A DNA stretch of 63,022 nucleotides, the filler included, from Parachlamydiales bacterium (GTDB taxonomy: Bacteria > Chlamydiota > Chlamydiia > Chlamydiales > Parachlamydiaceae): assembly GCA_020051075.1 (NCBI GenBank). It is 4 parts of 4 records of this genome, joined end to end, with 100 filler letters (N's around TTAATTAATTAA, not from the genome) between each part and the next. Parts side by side here need not be neighbours in the genome. Positions count along the whole stretch, not along the records: positions 21,885 to 48,559 come from JAGVJP010000093.1; 3 more parts are not named here. One strand, written 5' to 3'. Each line of letters starts with the position of its first letter. Position 1 is the first letter of the stretch. The notes under the pieces were generated by a model. That model had not been told where the DNA came from. It did not search any database and worked only from the letters and a program-made list of their open reading frames with translations. Both the position numbers and the translations under genes were made by a program. Positions 28,483-29,112 of the stretch are shown here, piece by piece.

Positions 28483-29112
28483 TTAATCACGGCTGTTTGG
28501 TTGGATGCGATATGTTCCTCGTGGAGTTTCTGGATATCCTCCATTAGGTCCTGGGCCTGTCGTTGTTCCTTGGTAGGTCGATGTCGTGCCTTGATTTTGC
28601 ATTTGGTTTTGCTGTCTATGTCTTTGTATCATTTGATCCCGAGAAGGAGCATTTGTATGCATCATATCGTCATTAGGATTGGCAGCTCCGCAGCCAGCTG
28701 ATGGACGAGGTTGGTTGTAAGGTTGAGCTCCGCAACCGGCTGATGGACGAGGTTGGTTGTAAGGTTGAGCTCCGCAACCAGCTGATGGACGAGGTTGGTT
28801 GTTGGATTGAGCTCCGCAACCGGCTGATGGACGAGTCGTGTTATAGGTTTGAGCTCCGCAACCAGATTTAGGTGTATTTGGCGTTGTTGGCGCGCCAGGT
28901 GTTTGATTTGGCAATCTTGGACCGTTTTGAGAAGGTGTCTGCTCTGGAGCAGCACCGCATCCGCCTCTAGCTGAAGAAGCGCCGCACCCACCTCTTGCTG
29001 AATGCACATCTTTCATGTCTAAATTGGAAGCGGCTTCCGCTGTCATTGGCAATGATGAGGCTAATAACAATGCTGCTATTGCTTTTGCTGCTAAAATTTT
29101 TTTCTTATTCAT
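28483..29112 (-). CDS. Secreted putative MNIO RiPP precursor 1 with seven GCGA motifs (209 aa)
   Basis: SD GGAGGG then MNKKKILAAKAIAALLLASSLPMTAEA; 2x ARGGCGA, KSGCGA, 4x RPSAGCGA. Confidence 0.85.
   Translation of the reverse strand: MNKKKILAAKAIAALLLASSLPMTAEAASNLDMKDVHSARGGCGASSARGGCGAAPEQTPSQNGPRLPNQTPGAPTTPNTPKSGCGAQTYNTTRPSAGCGAQSNNQPRPSAGCGAQPYNQPRPSAGCGAQPYNQPRPSAGCGAANPNDDMMHTNAPSRDQMIQRHRQQNQMQNQGTTSTYQGTTTGPGPNGGYPETPRGTYRIQPNSRD
28684..28863 (-). repeat. 42-bp coding tandem repeat (GCGAQxxNxxRPSA), about 4.3 units
   Basis: AGCTCCGCA recurs at 28684, 28726, 28768, 28810, 28852. Confidence 0.95.

Follow-up and report, generated by a model that had tools for sequence, protein, structure and literature searches.

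Precursor 1, a 209-residue protein encoded on the minus strand at the head of an operon, is a captophorin-type substrate with somewhat better than even probability: its cysteines would be converted to 5-thiooxazole and Cu would be bound by one intact disordered chain. The protein joins Cys repeats, the number of which varies between homologues, to an invariant C-terminal tail, and the operon encodes an iron enzyme of the MNIO class. The analysed window comprises 63,022 nucleotides from a Parachlamydiales bacterium; runs of N occupy positions 21785-21884, 48560-48659 and 59989-60088, and positions 21885-48559 represent one contig. The features of the locus are listed below.

29217..29245, minus strand: putative promoter-like site TAGACA-17-TATGGT, which recurs upstream of precursor arrays in relatives
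28483..29112, minus strand: precursor 1 (P0001), 209 aa, predicted to be exported and disordered
29032..29112, minus strand: predicted Sec signal peptide, residues 1-27 (sequence, hydropathy, AlphaFold2)
28951..29031, minus strand: short pre-core segment and two ARGGCGA motifs (Cys43, Cys52)
28867..28950, minus strand: Pro/Thr/Gln linker, missing from most homologues in the alignment
28684..28865, minus strand: 42-bp tandem array, five GCGA motifs at 14-aa spacing, Cys85-Cys141
28582..28683, minus strand: Met/Gln-rich spacer, not conserved
28510..28581, minus strand: Cys-free, near-invariant motif of 24 residues (residues 178-201)
28437..28470, minus strand: stem-loop followed by a U-rich run, directly after the precursor 1 stop
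27449..28351, minus strand: precursor 2 (P0002), same leader family, 2 Cys (GCGAKCA)
27452-27637, minus strand: four-helix domain, C-terminal in precursor 2
26469..27350, minus strand: MNIO (DUF692) of BufB type (P0003); NF050167, PF05114
25582..26472, minus strand: DUF2063 partner, PME type 1 (P0004); PF09836

The minus-strand translation of 28483-29112 contains, in this order, the signal, two ARGGCGA motifs, a Pro/Thr linker, five GCGA motifs, a Met/Gln-rich stretch and the final 32 residues. The reading frame is open from 29199 too (238 aa). The start at ATG 29112 is favoured because GGAGG directly precedes this codon and because of the N-termini of the homologues and the position of the promoter-like site (29245-29217). 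The signal peptide proposed in the sequence-only reading is supported by inspection (K-rich start, hydrophobic stretch, A-E-A/A site), by a hydropathy peak of 2.3 and by an AlphaFold2 model (54 sequences), which is confident solely for the signal helix 3-19. Beyond this helix the model is without secondary structure, with pLDDT of about 45-60. The best ESM Atlas value for the whole of precursor 1 (0.78) is uninformative. No Pfam or NCBIfam family is matched above cut-off, and it counts against the captophorin reading that P0001 fits no described precursor class in these libraries.

All seven cysteines of precursor 1 (Cys43, 52, 85, 99, 113, 127 and 141) lie within GCGA, the last five being 14 aa apart, exactly as the sequence-only reading had described. 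When the mature chain was shuffled 100,000 times, two GCGA arose in 3 cases and a larger number in none. The chain has neither Lys-Cys nor Cys-Lys. Tandem Repeats Finder reports the array at 28684-28865 with 4.3 copies at 90%; the two ARGGCGA motifs belong to another repeat, of 27 bp (28944-29002), and their segment is a worn form of the L-A-x-G-x-C start of the family. The array that had been called a near-identical 42-bp repeat is real, but its near-identity is confined to one pair of units (97%): similarity among the four inner units ranges over 64-97%, that of the Cys85 unit to the others over 52-64%, and the array is frayed at both ends. At its first spacer (28827-28845) the contigs of a close relative (runs X1, X2) have gaps totalling 12 bases, and the array is therefore still variable between strains.

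The number of repeats does vary among homologues, the 19 repeat-bearing ones having 3-8 Cys. In 6/6 genes tested, the repeat units resemble each other more closely inside one gene (0.58-0.76) than from gene to gene (0.50-0.55), which fits repeated local expansion. The proposal that GCGA is the recognition unit of the enzyme is not supported as it stands: only 57 of the 104 Cys in these homologues lie in GCGA, and the share falls to 63/332 across 98 distinct chlamydial precursor-like sequences, where Cys outside the six-Cys module were counted. Since GCGA is a minority of these 332 Cys and 225 of them stand between small residues, the unit under selection is probably a small-Cys-small site and not GCGA as such. 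This agrees with the flank tolerance of FonBC, for which the available text reports that Ala is tolerated before Cys and that Gly or Ala is required after it (bioRxiv 2025.11.18.689057). One protein, P0023, has six Cys and is without any Cys-Gly repeat. The motifs DDMMHT and RHRQQNQMQ, read earlier as a M/H/Q-rich tail, are both present in precursor 1, but they are no conserved feature: 11 of the 14 homologues have no His in this stretch (P0002 was left out of the count as a false regex hit).

The best-conserved part of precursor 1 is a different one, residues 178-201, which the sequence-only reading left out. This Cys-free tail has the pattern S-S-Y-Q-G-T-[TS]-T-G-P-G-P-N-[GD]-G-Y-P-x-[TAS]-P-[RHK]-G-x-Y. 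With a model based on 13 sequences it is recognised in 64 of the 135 matches listed. Tyr180, Gly182, Gly188, Gly192, Tyr193 and Pro197 are present in 65/65 copies, an invariance that is partly selected, as the 135 matches were drawn by a profile that itself includes the motif. The tail-bearing proteins are otherwise unalignable (mean column identity 18%). Of the 56 tail-bearing homologues of full length, 29 have at most one Cys beyond residue 25. The most conserved feature of this family is therefore unrelated to Cys chemistry, which counts against the captophorin reading, and the tail is a separate module independent of Cys; it is joined to at least 3 Cys repeats in 4/15 genomes. In G003 (L039 / L099) the modules are spread over three genes directly before the MNIO gene: one encodes the tail alone, one a short protein with xCG repeats and one a helical domain without any Cys.

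The tail model matched 16 of the 73 family genomes, 15 after the G011 match (E 0.005) was dropped as spurious; L117 was dropped as unrelated. No match was found in the 268 genomes outside the family. In 15/15 genomes there is one copy of the tail, carried by the gene that opens the array, at 0.2-3.1 kb from the MNIO gene; these genomes are kin and hence not 15 independent observations. The scan of metagenomes confirmed only 5/81 pattern matches, so that the context of the tail gene rests mainly on genomes. Across 10 loci the third codon positions of the tail vary freely, Ser comes from both codon blocks and only the Asn codon is constant (AAT, 10/10). Since synonymous sites vary, a DNA or RNA element was ruled out, and the constraint appears to act at the protein level. 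A tie between the tail and loss of the bufferin-2 module was ruled out as well, as G009, G077 and G096 carry both. When the tail was modelled together with P0003, P0004 and the helical domain of P0002, the complexes scored 0.02 and 0.01 against a mark of 0.32, which is uninformative, and a PDB sequence search with the tail returned nothing below E 4. The MNIO tree is mostly unresolved, with six tail-bearing rows within one weakly supported group of nine, and no enzyme change tracking the presence of the tail was found among the MNIOs compared.

P0003 scores 327.1 bits against NF050167, the NCBIfam bufferin maturase model (cut-off 310), and 353 bits against PF05114; its closest solved chain is 3BWW. 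P0004 scores 45.8 bits against PF09836 (cut-off 27.2) and weakly, below cut-off, against PF22106 and NF050145 (HvfC). As far as can be judged from sequence, a DUF2063 partner with an RRE-like C-terminus thus adjoins the MNIO, and the earlier claim that precursor 1 is a multi-Cys MNIO substrate is very likely right. The genome has one MNIO, and a leader model made from relatives matches only the precursor 1 and precursor 2 genes in it at E<1e-4. Among 30 chlamydial MNIOs there is no variation in the His/Asp/Glu residues of MNIO ligand type. At residue 252 of P0003 (26595-26597, minus strand), after the catalytic Asp position, there is Ala, found in P0003 only among 66 related MNIOs, 59 of which have Asp; the specificity of the enzyme may differ. 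Asp251 probably corresponds to Asp249 of FonB, an equivalence taken from its position against 3BWW and not from an alignment with FonB.

The named relatives of this MNIO belong mostly to Chlamydiota, Parachlamydiaceae included; together with the Pom porin encoded nearby, this makes a Parachlamydiaceae-like host the preferred reading. The MNIO family occurs in 98/301 genomes of the phylum, in 31/32 from the host's own taxonomic family and in 0/30 of one family with ~1.1 Mb genomes. One to four leader-family Cys precursors precede the MNIO gene in 48 of 66 loci, some of which are truncated. G053, a complete 2.6-Mb genome from the same taxonomic order, has five MNIO paralogues. In L098 (G031:C22) the MNIO gene is broken into two frames and degraded fragments lie close by, the tail-bearing precursor being intact; the split may be an assembly error.

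Precursor 2 ends with a four-helix domain that is matched in 66/300 genomes of the phylum. In many relatives this domain has an inserted 32-residue, six-Cys, bufferin-2-like module, and in precursor 2 the insert is absent. The modules of the 2/2 proteins scanned reach E 1e-7 and 1e-5 against the BufA2 model, below its cut-off; by this similarity the module would tie the locus to bufferin 2. NF050166 (BufA2) has no match in P0001 or P0002. Fold searches with the four-helix domain gave no Foldseek match at E<=0.001, and the best VIA Z of 5.2 is uninformative.

The genes follow each other on the minus strand as precursor 1, precursor 2, MNIO and DUF2063 partner. The stem-loop at 28437..28470 has z -4.05 (0/200 shuffles) and is likely a leaky terminator or a stabiliser. 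Among 10 loci folded, the hairpin after the tail gene is strong here and in L098, and none is consistent in the other 8; the gap from the tail gene to the next gene ranges from ~20 to several hundred bases. A second G+C-rich stem-loop lies between precursor 2 and MNIO (27351-27448, minus strand), folded without a shuffle control. The simple promoter/terminator scan performed at chance level and missed the hairpin after precursor 1. The promoter-like pattern occurs once in the genome, where 0-1 are expected by chance, and no regulon could be read from a scan of the whole genome.

Between the MFS gene and the precursors lies a gene (29620-31212, minus strand) for a 530-aa protein that is coiled-coil-like and has a hydrophobic stretch late in its sequence; it has no family match in Pfam or NCBIfam, and several relatives have none there. 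At 32855-33976 (minus strand) an outer membrane protein of the Pom family (PF17251) is encoded, which contains a long insertion rich in Ser and Cys; P. amoebophila and several relatives have a Pom gene and an rsmD-like gene upstream of the array. The order in the window is Pom, MFS, precursors, MNIO; in L107 and L111 it is MFS, three precursors, MNIO. A beta-lactamase-fold serine hydrolase with DUF3471 (23870-25507, minus strand) lies downstream of the partner gene; no such gene was seen after the partner in 8 related loci, 4 of which have no downstream gene in the sequence covered. DoxX is located elsewhere in the genome and not in the cluster.

In P. amoebophila, pc1865 is the DUF692 protein and pc1866 the DUF2063 protein, and pc1862-pc1864, of class late II, sit between the MFS gene and DUF692 (PMC5451489). 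We infer from gene order, and not from their sequences, that pc1862-pc1864 are the positional equivalents of the precursors. Their log2 RPKM values at 48 h are 3.4-4.3, 6.3-6.9 and 8.3-8.6, and in extracellular bacteria about 7.0, 9.6 and 11.4; expression is 4-8 fold higher at 96 h and in extracellular bacteria than at 48 h, the MNIO gene rises together with them, and pc1863 and pc1864 occur in the elementary-body proteome (PMC5451489). All three had been predicted earlier as species-specific outer-membrane proteins (PMC2811131). By analogy, the precursors described here would be expressed late, for the infectious stage. In a ~95% identical relative, contigs from RNA libraries cover both precursors, a weak indication from the contigs of one study, read without a silent-stretch control. 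In the same kind of data (one study, contigs only, no such control) the RNA runs X3 and X6 have no contig over 29252-29500 and the DNA runs do; this gap was not counted as a transcript start, and eighteen further runs with small word shares were left out of the reading. In the literature searched, no Cu data were found for these bacteria, and for pc1862-pc1866 one in-silico paper was listed.

These observations, read in the light of characterised MNIO-DUF2063 systems, suggest the following course of events. The MNIO/DUF2063 pair would oxidise each small-Cys-small site to 5-thiooxazole in the cytoplasm, with a shift of -4 Da per Cys, or up to about -28 Da on the mature chain of ~18.8 kDa. This product is proposed because the MNIO-DUF2063 (PME1) clusters characterised in the available text of bioRxiv 2025.11.18.689057 all install it; they generally bind Cu. 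The enzyme would read Cys flanked by small residues, the number of sites being set by slippage-type duplication, and the stem-loop after the stop would keep the precursor message in excess. HvfA, likewise an unstructured multi-repeat precursor, has six Cys modified, and the signal peptide is reported to be dispensable for modification in HvfA (PMC11252979) and in BufA1. After modification precursor 1 would be exported by Sec, and its mature chain would act as a flexible sponge in the envelope of the elementary body, holding about one Cu per two modified Cys. It counts against this picture that unmodified HvfA binds 2-3 Cu weakly (PMC11252979) and that bufferins are described as Cu-induced, the expression data here being developmental only. 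The late expression would arm the elementary body ahead of uptake by amoebae; bufferins are reported to have guarded Caulobacter from amoebal killing. For the tail we can only guess at a docking or retention motif for an envelope partner, and this is the weakest step of the explanation.

Several other explanations have to be weighed. OmcA and OmcB are Cys-rich envelope proteins of the elementary body, and precursor 1 may resemble them as an unmodified, disulfide-cross-linked envelope protein, with the MNIO having other substrates. Single, widely spaced Cys on a predicted disordered chain would suit inter-chain bonds, and the positional equivalents are late and EB-associated (PMC5451489) and predicted as outer-membrane proteins (PMC2811131). 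We nevertheless regard it as unlikely: the only Cys-bearing leader-family genes of the genome are these two and adjoin its only MNIO, the flanks of Cys are kept small (225/332) as FonBC demands (bioRxiv 2025.11.18.689057), and there is no Omc family match in Pfam or NCBIfam. Less probable still is that precursor 1 is modified and the MNIO makes a product other than 5-thiooxazole, or also modifies Asn or Tyr of the tail as a second, Cys-free core. Secreted proteins without Cys carry the tail, in every case next to the MNIO and in one case as a tandem copy, its Asn190 is kept in 63/65 copies and its three Tyr in 63-65 of 65, and the Ala after the catalytic Asp position is unusual. Against this chemistry, the characterised MNIO-PME1 products all carry 5-thiooxazole according to the available text (bioRxiv 2025.11.18.689057), and only 15/73 family genomes have the tail, MNIO being present in nearly all, with no enzyme change that follows the tail. 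The lowest probability is given to the cutting of modified precursor 1 into short peptides, one per repeat. The regular 14-aa period, Arg-Pro in each inner unit, the serine hydrolase gene downstream and the proteolysis left open for EGKCG products (bioRxiv 2025.11.18.689057) would speak for it, and 14 aa is also the most frequent spacing between Cys in the 19 homologues (21/85). The spacers of these homologues, however, range over 3-33 aa and share no cleavage motif in the alignment, such a hydrolase was not seen after the partner gene in the 8 related loci (4 with no downstream gene in the sequence covered), and bufferins are described as accumulating as whole mature chains; the earlier suggestion of released peptides thus finds no footing here.

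It is also conceivable, and about as improbable as a different MNIO product, that the tail is a ribosome-arrest sequence and that precursor 1 serves in addition as a CutF/CruR-like nascent sensor coupling export, and perhaps Cu, to downstream expression. If true, a chlamydial RiPP operon would have a first precursor that also acts as its own nascent-chain sensor, and arrest would couple export (with the Cys repeats: copper or modification state) to enzyme synthesis at the elementary-body switch. The tail gene is first in the array in the 15/15 family genomes with a credible match; it encodes a signal peptide, a freely varying middle and a Pro/Gly-rich motif a median of 11 residues from the end; the constraint acts on the protein while synonymous sites vary; the second paralogue of L031 retains just a worn tail copy; and CutF/CruR-type precedents exist (PMC9973294, PMC9426467). 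On the other side, the tail lacks a RAPP-like or poly-Pro motif of the kind given in the available part of PMC10987492, 4-29 residues follow it, and P0091 has two tandem copies. No consistent stem-loop follows the stop among the 10 loci folded, and the gap to the next gene is as variable as stated above; Rho-type coupling would need no conserved RNA element. Finally, of the 15 genomes 5 have the promoter-like site behind the tail gene and 8 have it ahead of this gene; in 2 it was not found.

If the captophorin-type reading holds, likely substrates are now named for the MNIO and partner of amoeba-associated chlamydiae. The precursors are modular, combining Cys repeats, an invariant tail and a helical carrier with or without the bufferin-2 insert, and they offer a natural series for MNIO specificity without Lys beside Cys. 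The locus would be tied to the infectious stage, which must survive amoebae that use copper on prey. The 24 residues of the tail are held nearly fixed in otherwise unalignable proteins, without a match in the searches made; whatever the tail does is new and is confined to one sub-group of one family.

The published record touches on these loci at a few points. The available text of the MNIO landscape paper (PMC12452194) says nothing on GCG motifs or on chlamydiae, and the motifs searched are absent from two of its supplementary spreadsheets; in its genome table 5 of the 8 Parachlamydiales rows among those listed have MNIO and partner and no classified precursor. The captophorin dataset (PMC13097082) holds, for 2 of the 6 chlamydial partner accessions queried, three uncategorised ORFs, all of the six-Cys-module type, and the tail is absent from its available part. 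PMC9666466 mentions RiPP-like clusters of amoeba-associated chlamydiae without detail. Searches for MNIO, bufferin or captophorin in chlamydiae and for the tail motif found no paper on these precursors or on the motif, subscription papers being outside their scope.

Among known systems, the locus has the general make-up of a captophorin cluster: a bufferin/Hvf-group MNIO and a DUF2063 partner, with a Cys-rich precursor bearing a Sec signal (by inspection) upstream. It resembles the repeat-type captophorins, that is, oxazolin (HvfA-HvfB-HvfC of Haemophilus influenzae), fontiphorin and gonophorin, in the signal peptide, the variable tandem Cys-Gly repeats (PMC11252979; bioRxiv 2025.11.18.689057 / PMC13097082) and the MNIO and DUF2063 partner downstream. 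Unlike their EGKCG pairs, the sites here are small-Cys-small at 9-16 aa, and P0001, having no Lys-Cys, lacks the repeated EGKCG of the Buf_EGKCG / oxazolin type; the invariant C-terminal motif, the second precursor and a developmental expression in place of a demonstrated Cu control also set this locus apart from what is described for them. With bufferin 2 (BufA2-BufB2-BufC2, Caulobacter vibrioides; bioRxiv 2024.03.18.585515) it shares a MNIO that passes the BufB model and a cluster without DoxX; relatives carry the BufA2-like six-Cys module, and the Asp that is typical of Cys-Lys enzymes is present in most related MNIOs. In contrast to bufferin 2, neither P0001 nor P0002 has the folded module with six conserved Cys, and P0001 is predicted to be disordered rather than small and folded. 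The four Cys and DUF2282 of bufferin 1 precursors are not found either, as there is no Pfam match. CutF of Rhodobacter capsulatus and CruR of Bordetella pertussis are similar in being first genes with an export signal, a Cys motif and a Pro-containing conserved C-terminal motif, features of which first position, export signal and C-proximal motif recur in 15/15 tail genes; they differ in that here there is no RAPP or poly-Pro, a stem-loop covering the next ribosome site is not consistent among the loci folded, and many members are without Cys. In this comparison the locus descends from a bufferin-2-type locus and works like a repeat-type captophorin, with P0001 outside the described precursor classes. 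Repeat expansion has published precedent; what stands out is the unclassified type of precursor, the connection with the infectious stage and the invariant tail.
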